DNA of 64,000 nt. Source: Escherichia coli (lineage in GTDB: Bacteria; Pseudomonadota; Gammaproteobacteria; Enterobacterales; Enterobacteriaceae). How positions within the stretch are numbered: the stretch's first letter is position 1; every line of letters begins with the position of its first letter. Position numbers and translations under genes: made by a program. Under the pieces are notes generated by a model that saw nothing but the letters and a program-made list of their open reading frames with translations, was not told where the DNA came from and did not search any database. The stretch lies in NCBI RefSeq assembly GCF_003019035.1, contig NZ_CP027447.1, one strand, 5' to 3'. Positions 9,807 to 47,004 of the stretch are shown piece after piece.

Positions 9807-10964
9807 TTAACGTGCCGGATGATGGACGGCGTTAAAACCCAGTTTACACAGCAATGATGCCGCACTGGCGTCATCACAAATTACATACAGAGATGACCAT
9901 TCACGGCGCTCAAGATAGTTTTTGCGCAGCTTATCGAACTCACCCGGTATTCCGGCGACTTTACGCAGCGGCGCGTCATCGCGGCGCACATCATACACCA
10001 AATGCACCAGCCTTTTCAGCGTCGGTTGATCGAGCGGGCCATGCAGCGTAATGCGACCAAACTCTGGCGCGGGCAGCAACGTATCCAGCGCAACGTGTTG
10101 TTCATGCCCAATAAACTTGCTATAAGCTTCAAACACTTGCGTAGTACCGCGTGCTTTACCTTCCAGGGTATAGCCTGCGATATGCGGCGTGCCGATATCC
10201 ACTTTTTTCAGCAATTCCACGTTAAGTTCCGGTTCGCCTTCCCAGACATCCAGCACTACGCTTAACTTCTGGCCTTCGTTCAGGCAGGTCAGCAGGGCGG
10301 TATTATCGACGACTGCGCCACGGCAGGCGTTAATCAGAATCGCTCCTGGTTTCAGGCTGCGGATCAGTTTTTCATCCGCCAGATGCAGCGTTTTGTACGG
10401 ACCATCTTTAAAGAGTGGCGTATGGAAAGTCAGAATATCCGCATGCTGAACTAATTCATCCAGCGAGCGGAAATCCCCCTCATCCCCACGGTCGGCGCGG
10501 GGCGGATCGCAAAGTAAGGTTTTGATCCCTAAAGCTTCCAGTCGCGCCTGTAAACGACGACCAACGTTACCAACGCCAACGATCCCCACGGTACGCTCGT
10601 GCAGTGAAAATCCATCGCGTTCGGCAAGCATCAGCAGGGAGGAGAAAACATATTCCACCACCGCAATCGCATTACAGCCAGGTGCCGCGGAAAAACCAAT
10701 TCCCGCCTGCTTTAACCACGCTTCATCGACATGGTCGGTCCCCGCGGTGGCAGTGCCAACAAATTTAATGGGTTTTCCTGCCAGCAAAGATTCATTCACT
10801 TTCGTGACCGAACGCACCATCAGCGCATCCGCGTCTGCCAGTTGAGCGACGGGGATTGGACGCCCGGGAACCGCGGTCACCTCACCCAAACGGCTAAATA
10901 AGTCGCGGGCATAAGGCATATTTTCATCAACAAGGATTTTTAACCCTTTTTCAGTCTCTGACAA
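9807..10964 (-). CDS. pdxB: Erythronate-4-phosphate dehydrogenase with a prophage-encoded N-terminal extension
   Basis: The body matches remembered PdxB ([15 protein letters not shown]...). The codon before KILVDEN is TTA. The only in-frame start is TTG at 10962-10964, 7 nt after an AGGAG on the minus strand (10972-10976). Codons 1-7 (SETEKGL) lie in phage DNA. Confidence 0.85.
10921..10940. repeat. attL core (20 bp)
   Basis: TTTTCATCAACAAGGATTTT is identical to 46884-46903. On the minus strand it encodes pdxB K-I-L-V-D-E-(N). Confidence 0.85.
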
Positions 10965-11061
10965 TCTAAGGCTCCTTTATTAACAAACGCCCATTTGCAA
11001 ACTGCTGTTTAATCTGAAAAAACATTCATAATCATACAGATAACAACATAACCATTTAGAC

Positions 11062-11096
11062 GGGCAATACTGAAAAATTGTTATTCAGTATCGCCC
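11062..11096. other. 13-bp-stem inverted repeat in the attL P' arm, between int and pdxB
   Basis: gggcaatactgaa...ttcagtatcgccc. The single A/C mismatch becomes a G-U pair only in the minus-strand (int to pdxB) transcript. Confidence 0.4.
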
Positions 11097-11122
11097 TTTA
11101 AGCCGTTTCAGGCTATATAAAA

Positions 11123-12127
11123 TTAATCCCCCGTGGACACTGCGTGGACACTCACGCCACCTTTCAGCGGATTAAGGGCCACCGCATCCTGCAGGTAATC
11201 CGGTGCAAAATGTGCATATGCCATTGTTTGCTGAATGGTTGCGTGGCCAAGAATCTTCTGAAGCGCAATAATGTTTCCTCCGTTCATCACAAAATGGCTG
11301 GCGAACGTATGCCGCAGCACATGTGCAGCTTGGCCTTTTGGCAAATCGGGCTTAACTCTTTTCAGCGCCAGGCAGAATTCCCGGTACTTCACCTCAAACA
11401 AGCCGCCTGTTTCTCTGGTTTTGATCGCCTCACAAACTGCCTGCGAAATTGGCACTGTTCTCTTTCGGCCATTTTTGGTTTCAAGAAACGTTACACGGTT
11501 ATGAACTATCTGTTCACCACGAAGCTTACAAGCTTCACTCCAGCGCGCCCCCGTGCTTAAACACAAAAGCGCAACACGCCAGTAATCGCCCTCCAGTGTA
11601 TCGAGCAATAGCGCCACTTCCTTCTGGGACAGGAAAGCCATTTCTCGTGGAGATACATAAAGAATAGAAATTCCCCTTACCGGATGTTCTGCATCCCAGA
11701 GGCCTATTTTCTTCAGTATGGTAAACATTCCGGATAACCGATTCATGTATCTGTTAGCAGATGACGGTTTCAATCCATCAGCTATCTTTTGAGAACGCCA
11801 CGCGATAATTTTTAGCTTATCAAGATCCACAGCCTGCATATCAGCGCCAAGCTCATTGATTATGTTGCGCAGTTGTTTTCGGTCTTCTTCCGCCTTACGC
11901 CTGTGCTGGCCGTGATACATCCACCACAACTCAAGCAAATCATTTAGCGTTCGACGATCACGGTAGCCCTGTATATATTCCCGCTTTTCAGCGTTCGCCA
12001 TGATGTAGCGTTCAGTGGCCACCGCTACCGATTTTTTGTCAAATACCTTACGCACGCGCTTTCCCTTGCGTCCGTTCGGCCTGATGTCCAGCAAATAACG
12101 ACCATCTTCGAGCTTCTTAATCGACAT
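11123..12127 (-). CDS. int: P2-type tyrosine integrase
   Basis: MSIKKLEDGRYLLDIRPNGRKGKR... aligns along its length with remembered P2 Int, including LSTGARW, HxLRHTFASH and MAYAHFAPDYL. The start is placed at MSIKK. Confidence 0.93.
   Translation of the reverse strand: MSIKKLEDGRYLLDIRPNGRKGKRVRKVFDKKSVAVATERYIMANAEKREYIQGYRDRRTLNDLLELWWMYHGQHRRKAEEDRKQLRNIINELGADMQAVDLDKLKIIAWRSQKIADGLKPSSANRYMNRLSGMFTILKKIGLWDAEHPVRGISILYVSPREMAFLSQKEVALLLDTLEGDYWRVALLCLSTGARWSEACKLRGEQIVHNRVTFLETKNGRKRTVPISQAVCEAIKTRETGGLFEVKYREFCLALKRVKPDLPKGQAAHVLRHTFASHFVMNGGNIIALQKILGHATIQQTMAYAHFAPDYLQDAVALNPLKGGVSVHAVSTGD
11133..11150. promoter_or_regulatory. Putative Int arm-type binding repeats (P' arm)
   Basis: GTGGACAC-TGC-GTGGACAC is a tandem repeat with 11-bp period inside the 3' end of int. 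A near-identical copy lies at 46820-46837. It resembles the P2 arm-site consensus TGTGGACA as I recall it. Confidence 0.55.
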
Positions 12128-12223
12128 TGCGAAGCCCTCCAATGAACCGCTCTACAATTTCTCCAGCCTCTTTCCAGCAATAATCAGACCAGACAAAAAG
12201 CAGGTCTAACCAGTTTTCTGGCC

Positions 12224-12544
12224 TCAGCGGGATAATTTTTGGATTGTTTCGGTTGAAACACGATCTCCCTCCGAATTGCAGGAACCATCAAGAGAGAGAG
12301 CCGGAGAAATTTGCCCAACCTCCGGCATCGTTTCATCTGTTGATAACCAATAAGCATATTTCTTAAATTTAGGGTGTTTAGTAACCTTAAGTAAGGCACC
12401 CTCTGTTACTTGCTTCCCCCTCACCTCATAGTTAGTTACCGTCCCATAAGGCAGCCCAACACAATCCGCAAACTCCTGGCGGGTCATACCTTCTGCTTCA
12501 CGAATCAGGCGAAATTTTTCACCCATGCTTGACAAAGATGCCAT
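12224..12544 (-). CDS. Immunity repressor (HTH_XRE; positional C/CI equivalent)
   Basis: Contains the HTH motif GMTRQEFADCVGLPYGTVTNYE. It is divergent from cox and co-oriented with int. The start is uncertain; MASLSS was chosen because it lies 10 nt after GGAGGA. Confidence 0.75.
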   Translation of the reverse strand: MASLSSMGEKFRLIREAEGMTRQEFADCVGLPYGTVTNYEVRGKQVTEGALLKVTKHPKFKKYAYWLSTDETMPEVGQISPALSLDGSCNSEGDRVSTETIQKLSR

Positions 12545-12602
12545 ATCGGGCATATCCTCCATCGCAACATGCCACATCGGGCATAAACATAAAAACACTC
12601 AA

Positions 12603-12619
12603 ATAAGCCGATATAAGCC
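12603..12619. promoter_or_regulatory. Candidate repressor operator (direct repeats) in the C/cox divergent promoter region
   Basis: ATAAGCC is repeated at 12603-12609 and 12613-12619 (10-bp period) between the divergent repressor and cox genes, as for the direct-repeat operators of P2 C. Confidence 0.4.
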
Positions 12620-12657
12620 ATTTTGAGCCATTCGAACGAATTAGGGAGATTACCACA

Positions 12658-12945
12658 ATGAGCGAATCAGAGCTTGGGGGCTTCATTCAGGTAGCACCAT
12701 ATCCACTTGAAGCGGTGCCATATCAACTATTCGCCAAGATGATCGGCCGCAAGGAATCCACAGTCAGAACCATGATTGACGCAGCAAAGCTACCGACAAT
12801 TGACTTTGTGAAACCAGGTTCAGTAAAGACGCGTGCATCAGAAAACTGGGTATATCTGCCAGCATTTAACGAAGGCATGCGCAAAGCGTTTTTTGAGCAA
12901 CCGAAAGAACGCCGCGATGCATGGTTGTTGTGGCTGGGGCTTTAG
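12658..12945 (+). CDS. cox: Cox-like excisionase / early regulator
   Basis: 95 aa. AVPYQLFAKMIGRKESTVRTMIDAAKLP...WVYLPAFNEG...RDAWLLWLGL parallels remembered P2 Cox. Confidence 0.85.
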   Translation: MSESELGGFIQVAPYPLEAVPYQLFAKMIGRKESTVRTMIDAAKLPTIDFVKPGSVKTRASENWVYLPAFNEGMRKAFFEQPKERRDAWLLWLGL

Positions 12946-13410: not shown

Positions 13411-13752
13411 ATGAAACAGCAACGTAATTCACGCTTTCGTAATGGTGCTGAACGTCACGCTAACCGTTTCGCTACCAGTGCATCACGCAACAACATTCGC
13501 TACAGCCTGAGTGATACACACGCAACGCCGGATGGCTACCCAGTAAAACAAATCGGCGAGCATGCCTGGCTAATTGAGAAAGCTGGAATCGTGGTCCACA
13601 AATGCCCACGCAATCCGTTTACTGGAAACCGCATTTTTGCTCTAAGCAGCGGCGACAATCAGTTCGGGCAGGATTTCACATTATACGAAGCACTACGCAC
13701 GGTTGATCGTCTGCTTCGCGGACAAAGTTTTATTAAACAGGCTGATTTATAA
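13411..13752 (+). CDS. Hypothetical early protein
   Basis: 113-aa ORF tightly packed in the early operon. No family recognised. Confidence 0.55.
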   Translation: MKQQRNSRFRNGAERHANRFATSASRNNIRYSLSDTHATPDGYPVKQIGEHAWLIEKAGIVVHKCPRNPFTGNRIFALSSGDNQFGQDFTLYEALRTVDRLLRGQSFIKQADL

Positions 13753-44999: not shown

Positions 45000-45260
45000 A
45001 TGTTCCGTTGTCCGCTTTGTGGCGCATCTGCCCGTATCCGCACCAGTCGTCCGGAAAATGATTCAAACACCGTGCGGCAAAAGTATTACCAGTGTAACAA
45101 TCTGGAATGCGGCGTATGCTTCTCAACACTGGAAGCTTTCCATAAATTCACATCAAAACACGCCTCCGGCGTTCACTCTTCAGAAGATATCCCGTGGCAT
45201 GATCTGCCAGCTTCACACAGGGGAAACAATCAGATGAGTTTGCCTTTATCTCAGAATTAA
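45000..45260 (+). CDS. ogr: Ogr/Delta-family zinc-finger late transcription activator
   Basis: MFRCPLCGASARIRTSR...YYQCNNLECGVCF has the CxxC...CxxxxC pattern, like P2 Ogr. Confidence 0.88.
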   Translation: MFRCPLCGASARIRTSRPENDSNTVRQKYYQCNNLECGVCFSTLEAFHKFTSKHASGVHSSEDIPWHDLPASHRGNNQMSLPLSQN

Positions 45261-45269
45261 CAGGCAGAA

Positions 45270-45298
45270 TTGCCGGAGTAACAAAAAAGCGATAGATT
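45270..45298 (+). promoter_or_regulatory. Candidate promoter of the hok-like mRNA
   Basis: TTGCCG, 17 nt, TAGATT. The predicted start near 45305 coincides with GGGTGCC, which pairs with the 3' end of the transcript. Confidence 0.45.
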
Positions 45299-45451
45299 AC
45301 GCGCGGGTGCCTTTCGGCTGATGGTCGGAGGGAATACCCGAAGGCCAGATGTGGAAAGGCCCCGGAAAACATCTCTGTTTAACCGAGGCCCTAACATATC
45401 TACCTTAAGCAAGTGATAGGTTAGCGCCTCTCCAACAAAGGAGCAAGCGCT

Positions 45452-45592
45452 ATGTCGCAAAAATCGCTTACGGCCATCACGTTCTGCGTGACGGTAATCC
45501 TCATCATCTGGATGCTGCACGGTTCGCTGTGTGAAATACGGATGAGCTTCTGGGGAGCGGAGTTTGCGGCGTTCTTACAGTGTAAGCAGTAA
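45452..45592 (+). CDS. Hok/Gef-family type I toxin (46 aa; not in ORF track)
   Basis: MSQKSLTAITFCVTVILIIWMLHGSLCEIRMSFWGAEFAAFLQCKQ. An N-terminal TM is followed by the SLCEIR...E(F/V)AAF signature of Hok (compare R1 Hok ...[22 protein letters not shown]). SD AAGGAG. Confidence 0.75.
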   Translation: MSQKSLTAITFCVTVILIIWMLHGSLCEIRMSFWGAEFAAFLQCKQ

Positions 45593-45677
45593 GGAAACCG
45601 CGACGGGGGAGCAATCCCCCGTCAATCGGTTGCTAAGGTTGGCTGAAGTGGCACCCTATCTCTCAGACATGAACAAC

Positions 45678-45712
45678 AAACCCGCAGCGTAAAAACTGCG
45701 GGTTTTCTTTTT
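45678..45712 (+). terminator. Rho-independent terminator of the hok-like mRNA
   Basis: AAACCCGCAG-cgtaaaaa-CTGCGGGTTT followed by TCTTTTT. Confidence 0.8.
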
Positions 45713-45753
45713 GCTACCCTCACAAATGAGGGCACCATACATAAGCAATAGGC

Positions 45754-45807
45754 ATAACAGATCGATGCAATAAATCCGATCGATAAAAACGATCGATTTG
45801 TTATCAT
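45754..45807 (+). promoter_or_regulatory. Triple-GATC operator-like module and weak promoter upstream of com
   Basis: ATAACAGATCGAT (45754-45766) and ATCGATTTGTTAT (45792-45804) form a 13-bp inverted repeat. ATCGATAAAAACGATCGAT lies at 45779-45797. GATC sites at 45760, 45778 and 45791. A TATCAT -10 candidate (45802-45807) has a poor -35. Confidence 0.5.
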
Positions 45808-45841
45808 ATCGGCAGCAGTAACCACACAAGAGGTGCCGCAA

Positions 45842-46039
45842 ATGACGCAAAATGTACGATGCAAAAATTGCAACAAACTACTTGCCCGCGCCTCATTTCA
45901 CTACATTGAAATAAAATGTCCGCGCTGCAAAACACTTAACCAGATAACGAGAGCCATCGAGCACCCCACACACATGAGGAGTTATGACCGTGGGGATCGC
46001 AATCCAGCACCAACCAGCACATACACCGGAACACACTAA
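45842..46039 (+). CDS. com: Mu Com-like zinc-finger translational activator
   Basis: MTQNVRCKNCNKLLARASFHYIEIKCPRCKTLNQITRAIEHPT compares with remembered Mu Com MKSIRCKNCNKLLFKADSFDHIEIRCPRCKRHIIMLNACEHPT. Its 3' end overlaps the next gene out of frame. Confidence 0.8.
   Translation: MTQNVRCKNCNKLLARASFHYIEIKCPRCKTLNQITRAIEHPTHMRSYDRGDRNPAPTSTYTGTH
45964..45995 (+). promoter_or_regulatory. Stem-loop sequestering the methyltransferase SD and start codon
   Basis: CCCCAC (45964-45969) pairs with GTGGGG (45990-45995), enclosing GAGGAG and the ATG at 45984. This is analogous to the Com-regulated mom translation-initiation hairpin. Confidence 0.45.
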
Positions 46040-46775
46040 GGTTTATCAGACTGACAATGCCACGCTCTGTCGTGGGAATGCGCTGGAAATATTGCCGCTG
46101 ATTGAGCCAGAAAGTATTGATGCCTTAATCACTGACCCGCCTTACAGTTCGGGCGCGACACACAAGGCCGGACGCACCAACCAGGGCAGCCACGCAAAAT
46201 ATCTGAACGGCGAGAACCTTCATCGCTTTGATGGGTTTGCGGGTGAAAACATGGATGCCCGTTCGTGGGCTTACTGGACACAATTATGGATGGCACAGGC
46301 ACACCGCGCAGTCAGGCCGGGCGGTTATGCCCTGGTATTTACTGACTGGCGACAACTGCCAGCTTTAACCGATGCGTTTCAGGCCAGCGGTTTTACATGG
46401 CGTGGAATCATTGCGTGGAACAAAGGAAGGGGGTCACGAACACCCCATACGGGGTATTTCCGGCATCAGTGCGAATACATCGTCTGGGGCAGTAAAGGCC
46501 ATTTAGGTAAATCGCCTTCGGGACCGTTCGACGGCTGCATGACGTTCCCGGTTATCCCATCAAAGAAAATGCACCCGACCGGAAAACCAGAAGAACTTAT
46601 GGCAGAACTGGTCAGGACTGCGAATAGTGGTGGAACAGTCCTTGATCCTTTTATGGGATCGGGAACAACGGGTGTTGCAGCACTGAAAGCAGGACGCAAA
46701 TTTATTGGTATAGAAACCAGTGATCATTATTTTGATGTAGCAACACAACGGCTCAAAACGGCGATCGAACCATAA
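45984..46775 (+). CDS. Orphan beta-class amino-DNA methyltransferase (N6A/N4C; DPPY)
   Basis: 263 aa. Motif IV (LITDPPYSSG) lies near the N-terminus and motif I (VLDPFMGSGTTGVAA) near the C-terminus. No adjacent restriction gene. Confidence 0.85.
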   Translation: MTVGIAIQHQPAHTPEHTKVYQTDNATLCRGNALEILPLIEPESIDALITDPPYSSGATHKAGRTNQGSHAKYLNGENLHRFDGFAGENMDARSWAYWTQLWMAQAHRAVRPGGYALVFTDWRQLPALTDAFQASGFTWRGIIAWNKGRGSRTPHTGYFRHQCEYIVWGSKGHLGKSPSGPFDGCMTFPVIPSKKMHPTGKPEELMAELVRTANSGGTVLDPFMGSGTTGVAALKAGRKFIGIETSDHYFDVATQRLKTAIEP

Positions 46776-46778
46776 GAC

Positions 46779-46800
46779 AAAGCCCGCAATGTTGCGGGCT
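46779..46800 (+). terminator. Hairpin terminator after the methyltransferase gene
   Basis: AAGCCCGCAA-tg-TTGCGGGCTT. Confidence 0.6.
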
Positions 46801-46819
46801 TACTCTACCTCTCGAAAAT

Positions 46820-46837
46820 GTGGTCACTGCGTGGACA
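46820..46837. promoter_or_regulatory. Putative Int arm-type binding repeats (P arm)
   Basis: GTGGTCAC-TGC-GTGGACAT matches 11133-11150 at 17 of 18 positions. Confidence 0.5.
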
Positions 46838-46883
46838 TACGCTGATACAAATCCTTTTATATCAAGAAATTAAATCTTTGTTT

Positions 46884-46903
46884 TTTTCATCAACAAGGAT
46901 TTT
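46884..46903. repeat. attR core (20 bp)
   Basis: Identical to 10921-10940. On the minus strand it is followed upstream by GTG (46904-46906), the stranded native pdxB start codon. Confidence 0.85.
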
Positions 46904-47004
46904 CACGTTTGTGTTACCTGTATGAGACGAGAGTTAACCGGACAAGTGTGCCATAATCTCGCGGCCAGGCATACTTGCGAAGATTTCAGGTATAAGGATA
47001 CGTA

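Follow-up and report, generated by a model that had tools for sequence, protein, structure and literature searches.

How does a biosynthetic gene remain in use once a prophage has inserted itself among its first codons? The question is raised by a stretch of 64,000 nucleotides from Escherichia coli (assembly GCF_003019035.1, contig NZ_CP027447.1; the window, below, means this whole stretch), in which the vitamin B6 pathway gene pdxB has lost its native 5′ end to a prophage of the P2 family. Our overall best explanation, in which we place considerable confidence, is that a P88-like phage integrated in codons 2-8 of pdxB, that the lysogen carries a chimeric gene for a PdxB of 385 residues, and that this gene is transcribed from the phage side, mainly by read-through from the lysogenic promoter Pc. 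The initial annotation of the window had implied that the arrangement was new. The prophage in the pdxB start is confirmed and its structural interpretation supported, but it is already known: the same junction, TTG start and AAGGAG were published by Magaziner et al. 2019 (J Bacteriol 201:e00638-18, PMC6456863) for phage ΦSM, placed at the same site of pdxB in E. coli K-12, and the RefSeq annotation by the Prokaryotic Genome Annotation Pipeline (PGAP) already agrees with it. What we add is a prevalence of 5.6%, an account of every interruption by a single cassette, a clash between a published -10 element and the Shine-Dalgarno sequence, and the lack of a canonical terminator between int and pdxB together with a terminator placed across the core, in the P arm.

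The prophage and the sites that bound it lie as follows.

10941 to 46883, no strand: P88-like prophage (Xuanwuvirus, Peduoviridae, P2 family), 35,963 bp including one core copy.
10921 to 10940, no strand: attL core, 20-bp identity; on the minus strand it spans codons 2-7 of pdxB (K I L V D E) and extends two bases into codon 8.
46884 to 46903, no strand: attR core, the second 20-bp copy, an exact repeat.
11133 to 11150, plus strand: candidate arm-type integrase site on the P′ side; its tandem GTGGACA motif overlaps the final codons of int.
46820 to 46837, plus strand: candidate arm-type integrase site on the P side, with the same motif in the same orientation.

The core sequence, TTTTCATCAACAAGGATTTT, occurs only twice in the window, both times on the plus strand and with no mismatch, as the initial annotation had it; among 100 dinucleotide-preserving shuffles, not one contained two or more matches. 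Identity stops at exactly 20 bp, since the next base differs on either side (a and t on the left, t and c on the right); the minus-strand reading of the core as K-I-L-V-D-E of PdxB also follows directly from the DNA. An alignment to a prophage-free pdxB-flk region had been proposed at the outset. We rebuilt attB from the outer flanks (that of attR reads, in reverse complement, ...caggtaacacaaacGTGAAAATCC), and the resulting 262-nt pdxB-flk junction was found at full length and 100% identity in many prophage-free E. coli genomes. Conversely attP, made by joining the inner flanks, is contiguous in the free phages Chuche (exact core) and P88_4B11 (one core mismatch) and is also present in two metagenome contigs, L081 and L111. 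The window contains an 18-bp tandem motif, GTGGWCACTGCGTGGACA, in only two copies, in the same orientation, and no shuffle of 100 gave two or more; the pair, one on each arm, is in the arrangement expected for arm-type integrase sites, for which we regard them as candidates. The core repeat, the empty attB, the attP of free phages, and an integrase gene adjoining att and the arm-type repeats together identify the pair, on sequence grounds, as the genuine attL and attR of a tyrosine-integrase prophage.

At attL the reading frame of pdxB runs out of the host gene and into phage DNA. On the minus strand the junction reads TAA AGG AGC CTT AGA TTG TCA GAG ACT GAA AAA GGG TTA AAA ATC CTT GTT GAT GAA AAT ATG CCT, and contains these elements.

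9807 to 10964, minus strand: chimeric pdxB coding sequence, 385 residues; codons 1-8, (M)SETEKGL, are phage-encoded and the rest is native PdxB from Lys2.
10962 to 10964, minus strand: phage-encoded TTG start codon, the start of the PGAP coding sequence in lysogens (PMC6456863).
10972 to 10976, minus strand: phage-encoded Shine-Dalgarno sequence AGGAG (AAGGAG at 10972-10977), with a 7-nt spacer to the TTG (PMC6456863); invariant in 26 related P′ arms.
10977 to 10979, minus strand: in-frame TAA that closes the frame upstream.
10941 to 11122, minus strand: intergenic part of the P′ arm, 182 bp from the core to the int stop (11123-11125), forming the new pdxB 5′ leader and upstream region.

The TAA (10979-10977) makes a start further 5′ impossible, and every coordinate previously given for the TTG, its distance of 7 nt from AGGAG and the replacement of the initiator Met by (M)SETEKGL proved correct. 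The chimeric protein retains the 2-Hacid_dh, 2-Hacid_dh_C and DUF3410 domains. In natural lysogens PGAP calls a 1158-nt pdxB of 385 residues from this TTG (WP_000004833.1, WP_001546042.1); the K-12 coding sequence is 1137 nt from GTG, and the native start is GTG, not ATG, both in this strain and in K-12. Taken together, the mode of integration, the phage-supplied Shine-Dalgarno sequence, start and linker, and the predicted intact chimeric open reading frame can be read from the junctions themselves.

The function of this module has been shown elsewhere. Magaziner and colleagues noted that integration removes the pdxB start codon and native regulatory elements, that the phage offers an in-frame TTG with AAGGAG at -7, that ΦSM has no pdxB homologue, and that MG1655(ΦSM) grows like the wild type on M9-glucose (PMC6456863). 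The PGAP call of 385 residues and the prototrophy of MG1655(ΦSM), whose linker and Shine-Dalgarno sequence are identical, indirectly support the use of the phage TTG. Lysogen PdxB is therefore likely to be translated from this codon with its N-terminal extension tolerated; the crystallised Salmonella PdxB chain 3OET also carries extra N-terminal residues in our alignment. From the identical module, and from 302 natural lysogens in which pdxB is annotated intact, we infer that the present lysogen is prototrophic for vitamin B6. The gene had been called essential, which holds only conditionally, its loss giving auxotrophy on minimal medium. The phage P′ arm is built so that pdxB survives integration. 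All 26 independent P′ arms keep the TTG, the Shine-Dalgarno sequence and the frame, and within the linker only one substitution occurs, a synonymous one (AAA>AAG at 10947). Across these arms variable sites number 2 of 36 nt in the module and 14 of 146 nt in the remaining arm.

The native 5′ end of pdxB now stands on the other side of the prophage.

46862 to 46906, minus strand: orphaned native pdxB start (GTG at 46906-46904), which now opens a 14-codon reading frame, (M)KILVDEKNKDLIS*.
46907 to 47004, no strand: native divergent pdxB-flk intergenic region with the native pdxB ribosome-binding site and promoter, about 36 kb from the pdxB body.
46780 to 46801, minus strand: intrinsic terminator in the P arm, leftward, with a 9-bp stem (6 GC pairs) and the tail TGTCTTATGG.

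The intergenic region bears out the proposal that the native promoter is some 36 kb away, and its best promoter candidate is TTCGCA-17-GATTAT (46981-46953). This promoter is reportedly under positive growth-rate control, to go by the title of a 2002 study by Pease et al. as cited in PMC6456863. In the lysogen the P-arm terminator would be expected to stop transcripts that start at the displaced promoter, and the native promoter is disconnected whichever phage-side source drives pdxB. The same terminator would also shield the convergent methylase gene of the prophage from host read-in.

What, then, transcribes the chimeric gene? Upstream of it lies the lysogenic control region of the phage.

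11123 to 12127, minus strand: tyrosine integrase of the P2 type, 334 residues from the PGAP start, with Phage_integrase and Int_N domains; the mechanical open reading frame reaches 12142.
12224 to 12562, minus strand: C-type immunity repressor with a helix-turn-helix (HTH_3 Pfam match), first gene of the leftward lysogenic operon.
12658 to 12945, plus strand: Cox, excisionase and Pc repressor (Phage_Cox Pfam match), divergent from C.
11062 to 11096, minus strand: hairpin with a 13-bp stem, the sole strong structure between int and pdxB, lying 26 nt past the int stop and followed by no U tract.
11031 to 11060, minus strand: weak sigma-70-like candidate TCTAAA-18-TATGAT, 8 of 12 matches, from a relaxed scan and below the threshold of the standard scan.
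10974 to 11000, minus strand: published predicted promoter, -35 TTGCAA (11000-10995) and -10 TAAAGG (10979-10974) (PMC6456863); absent from both of our scans.

All three genes, C (12224-12562), int (11123-12127) and pdxB (9807-10964), point the same way, on the minus strand, with int and the repressor gene directly upstream of pdxB and 182 bp between the core and int, as the initial annotation had described. In P2, Pc drives an operon of repressor and integrase (PMC3936717). A terminator scan of the minus strand between int and pdxB (10964-11122) returned no canonical terminator, and the only leftward terminator-like element near attP lies in the P arm (46801-46780), beyond the core. With the terminator across the core, the C-int transcript would pass over the core in the circular phage and, in the lysogen, continue into pdxB. 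Because this geometry and the placement of the terminator fit, we favour read-through from Pc, perhaps joined by a weak P′-arm promoter, as the likely phage-side source of pdxB transcription.

It is quite possible, if in our view somewhat improbable, that an autonomous promoter in the 182-bp P′ arm is instead the main source, with the hairpin insulating pdxB and making it independent of the lysogenic switch. A promoter with -35 TTGCAA and -10 TAAAGG has been predicted in the arm (PMC6456863), but its -10 (10979-10974) overlaps the Shine-Dalgarno sequence (10977-10972), so that both cannot be used; the -10 also lacks the conserved final T, and the transcript would start near 10967, about 3 nt before the TTG, and would carry no Shine-Dalgarno sequence. 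The relaxed-scan candidate at 11060-11031 is better placed, directly downstream of the hairpin, and would give a transcript whose leader, some 60 nt long, includes the Shine-Dalgarno sequence; the candidate's -35 is poor, though (2 of 6 matches), and the standard scan found no minus-strand promoter in 10965-11122. The hairpin between int and this candidate is strong, at -21.0 kcal/mol and uninterrupted in the minus-strand RNA (z = -7.3) against -17.5 kcal/mol with a mismatch on the plus strand; as an insulator it is weakened by the missing U tract.

The hairpin itself appears to be directional. It has two imperfect positions, which form G·U wobbles in minus-strand RNA but mismatches on the plus strand. 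The one stem polymorphism, 11093 G>A (in ΦSM, L103 and L111), can still pair on the minus strand, as G·U, and not on the plus strand (-18.4 against -13.9 kcal/mol). This strand asymmetry and the pairing of the ΦSM variant hint that it acts in the leftward transcript, where, as part of the int 3′ untranslated region, it could stabilise or process int mRNA. An Rfam scan of 10700-12800 matched no known RNA family for either the hairpin or the leader.

Several points tell against the explanation that we prefer. Consensus promoter scans did not locate Pc itself; since they missed it, the empty result for the P′ arm is weak too, and this AT-rich arm could hold a functional non-consensus promoter. 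Much of the C-int transcript could still end at the hairpin or be processed there, and Rho-dependent termination may occur in the 158-nt untranslated gap. Nor can much be drawn from the conservation of the Shine-Dalgarno/TTG module. With at least 97% identity among all known P′ arms, from a young lineage, a test of conservation is weak and the substitutions are too few to demonstrate selection; variable sites occur at about the same rate inside the module as in the remaining arm. On the favoured reading, that of read-through from Pc, a broader proposal can be framed, which we advance tentatively and think rather unlikely as a whole. In the roughly 5.6% of E. coli that carry the insertion, pdxB would be mainly the distal gene of a Pc-C-int transcript, reached through the conserved hairpin of the int 3′ untranslated region; vitamin B6 synthesis would depend on the C/Cox switch and cease as lytic growth begins, with Pc repressed by Cox, and the position of the terminator would have evolved for this.

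A second alternative concerns translation. The TTG had been described as the only usable start; a phage TTG with its Shine-Dalgarno sequence is indeed there, but the native Met9 ATG (10919-10917) also remains in frame. PdxB might thus be made from this ATG, or be absent, the phage TTG going unused and lysogens living on exogenous B6 vitamers or a bypass pathway. A sigma-70-like TTGTCA-17-AAAAAT at 10964-10936 would even start a transcript just upstream of the ATG. We nevertheless consider this very improbable. The ATG has no Shine-Dalgarno sequence, and starting there would delete the conserved MKILVDEN that forms the first β-strand, whereas the TTG stands at the optimal 7-nt spacing from AGGAG in all 26 arms. 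Growth of MG1655(ΦSM) on M9-glucose like the wild type (PMC6456863) and the annotation of an intact pdxB reading frame in natural lysogens of many lineages and hosts argue in the same direction.

The mechanism that we propose runs as follows. A complete temperate phage of the P2 family integrated through its tyrosine integrase at the 20-bp core over pdxB codons 2-8, and the crossover stripped pdxB of its native GTG, ribosome-binding site and promoter, which passed to attR about 36 kb off. The P′ arm provides AGGAG, the 7-nt spacer, the TTG and, in the frame of the core, seven sense codons, so that the lysogen would make a 385-residue PdxB in which (M)SETEKGL replaces the initiator Met. The constitutive lysogenic C-int transcript from Pc would read through into pdxB, a weak P′-arm promoter downstream of the int-proximal hairpin may add transcript of its own, and excision would restore native pdxB exactly.

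How widespread is the arrangement? Of 5,426 complete E. coli genomes, 302 (5.6%) had the full-length attL junction and 5,123 had the reconstructed attB intact. The number of attL junctions equals the number of genomes without an intact pdxB-flk junction (5,425 - 5,123), so that all interruptions are accounted for by one cassette. Lysogens come from many hosts and pathotypes, among them O145 Shiga toxin-producing E. coli, enterotoxigenic E. coli, the enteropathogenic strain E110019, and avian, porcine and human isolates. A chance origin of the 20-bp repeat, or an error of assembly, in place of an att duplication is conceivable a priori only; it is vanishingly improbable given the shuffles, the 100% identical empty site, the attP of free phages, and the recurrence of the junction in 302 independent complete genomes as well as about 21 metagenome contigs.

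Integrase relatives in GTDB species representatives numbered 54 loci at 82% identity or less, and none of these adjoined pdxB; the lack of any diverged relative at this site confines pdxB targeting to one young int/att cassette. We also scanned IMG/VR and metagenomes for junctions, taking the core followed by a base other than C as attL- or attP-type. The matches at the site came from the same lineage only (2 IMG/VR contigs, and about 21 attL and 2 attP metagenome contigs); no second phage family was found at the site in these scans, the other matches being unrelated chance matches in soil and marine contigs.

Some further observations concern the core and its variants. The attP core of P88_4B11 (L002, 1481-1500) differs from the E. 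coli attB at one base, window position 10926, with TTTTCCTC for TTTTCATC; carried into attL, this TTTTCCTC base would change Asp to Glu. The core C of P88_4B11 was seen in none of the at least 21 attL junctions examined, which may reflect strand exchange on the pdxB-distal side of that base, mismatch correction or selection. About a dozen soil and rhizosphere contigs (L067, L068, L077, L082, L083, L088, L090, L094, L102, L104, L106-L108) hold a variant 20-mer, TTTTCCTCAACAAGGATTTT, in a shared conserved context, ...ccaatgccTTTTCCTCAACAAGGATTTTtaacagtcttgt...; this is probably the conserved gene start of an unrelated organism with no phage connection. In E. coli E24377A (NC_009801.1, 2608151-2608290) the first 140 nt of pdxB are 83.6% identical to the window, against at least 98% in nearly all other E. 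coli, so that its att-proximal pdxB end is probably a divergent, recombined allele.

The prophage itself is of full length, its gene set comprising the int-C/cox switch, replication, terminase, capsid, portal and tail genes and Ogr; it is flanked by truA, usg and pdxB on the left (all on the minus strand) and by flk (plus) and yfcJ (minus) on the right. The divergent C/Cox pair, an Ogr_Delta-type Ogr, structural and replication genes of the P2 type, and nucleotide identity place it among P2-like phages and in Xuanwuvirus. The int-C-cox region is 100% identical to PhiR44_2, 98.3% to P88_4B11, 96% to Citrobacter phage Shae_phiSM (ΦSM) and 92% to Chuche, and the remainder is 92-98% identical to P88-like Peduoviridae; over 74-100% of the queries, identity to P88_4B11, ΦSM and P88 is 95.7-98.3%. 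The type phage P88 (KP063541) aligns only from about 2.5 kb inside the left end (window position 13430 onward) and differs in its int/C/cox module. Only a subset of Xuanwuvirus thus shares the int/att cassette, and the specificity of integration site is modular within the genus.

Between the late genes and attR lies a cargo block (45000-46775). It contains an Ogr/Delta zinc-finger protein (45000-45260) and a Mu Com-like zinc ribbon (45833-46039) that overlaps the start of an N6/N4 DNA methyltransferase (45984-46775); the latter pair has the predicted layout of a Com-controlled methylase. Chuche has the same Com/methyltransferase cargo, and ΦSM and P88_4B11 have genes for a TagO-like and a hypothetical protein in its place.

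We regard the locus as a clear case of an att site that evolved to keep its target gene working through new 5′ translation signals; gene rescue by phages is more often achieved by duplicating a 3′ end. About 1 in 18 sequenced E. coli would have a PdxB with a phage-derived N-terminus and phage-side transcription. The identity of the promoter behind pdxB, and any resulting coupling of B6 synthesis to the lysogenic switch, bear on annotation, on the curing and engineering of such strains, and on how transcriptomes are read at this locus.

The closest known system is ΦSM (Shae_phiSM, OR565851), which belongs to the same genus, shares 96% nucleotide identity in the int/att cassette and forms lysogens that grow on minimal medium. 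Its P′ arm differs from ours by one nucleotide (11093), with an identical TTG and AAGGAG at -7. The published 17-bp core, ATCCTTGTTGATGAAAA, is the reverse complement of 10921-10937 and lies inside our 20 bp, all of which the ΦSM attP shares. As in the ΦSM class, the core with ATCCTTGTTGATGAAAA begins inside pdxB (6 bp in by the class definition; the 20-bp identity starts 3 bp after the first base of the GTG) and is joined to an in-frame TTG with AAGGAG at -7. Our account departs from the published one (PMC6456863) in taking GTG rather than ATG as the native start and 20 bp rather than 17 bp as the identity, and in the promoter prediction, which clashes with that study's own Shine-Dalgarno assignment. 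The present case is a natural E. coli lysogen of a sibling phage whose int-C-cox region is identical to that of PhiR44_2, and its right end carries Com and a DNA methyltransferase where ΦSM has TagO-like genes; in Citrobacter rodentium itself, ΦSM occupies a traF-like gene, not pdxB.

With P2 the prophage shares the order attP-int-C / cox, with C and int directed toward attP, as well as arm-type repeats on both arms, Cox and Ogr (PMC3936717). Integrases of the P2 type mostly target intergenic sites and rarely the inside of non-tRNA genes (Nilsson et al. 2011, PMC3448106), whereas here the target is the 5′ coding end of a metabolic gene and is supplied with rescuing translation signals. Listeria φ10403S in comK and SpyCIM1 at the 5′ end of mutL likewise sit at or near a gene 5′ end, where expression could depend on prophage state. 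Insertions of that active-lysogeny kind inactivate the gene until excision. Such a regulatory switch is ruled out here by the intact 385-residue reading frame with its Shine-Dalgarno sequence and start, and by the published prototrophy (PMC6456863). Phage 21 and e14 at icd, and the phages of tRNA and tmRNA genes, also integrate inside a gene whose function is restored by core-adjacent phage DNA, and their excision reverts the change. These phages duplicate the homologous 3′ end of the target gene. ΦNP at ssrA is one example of such reconstitution of a gene end (PMC6456863). Our prophage does not belong to that 3′-end duplication class, for it carries no homologous copy of the displaced segment and has instead an unrelated sequence encoding SETEKGL; in contrast to the icd, tRNA and ssrA types, the 5′ end of pdxB is replaced by a non-homologous ribosome-binding site, start codon and seven-residue linker, with new transcription from upstream.

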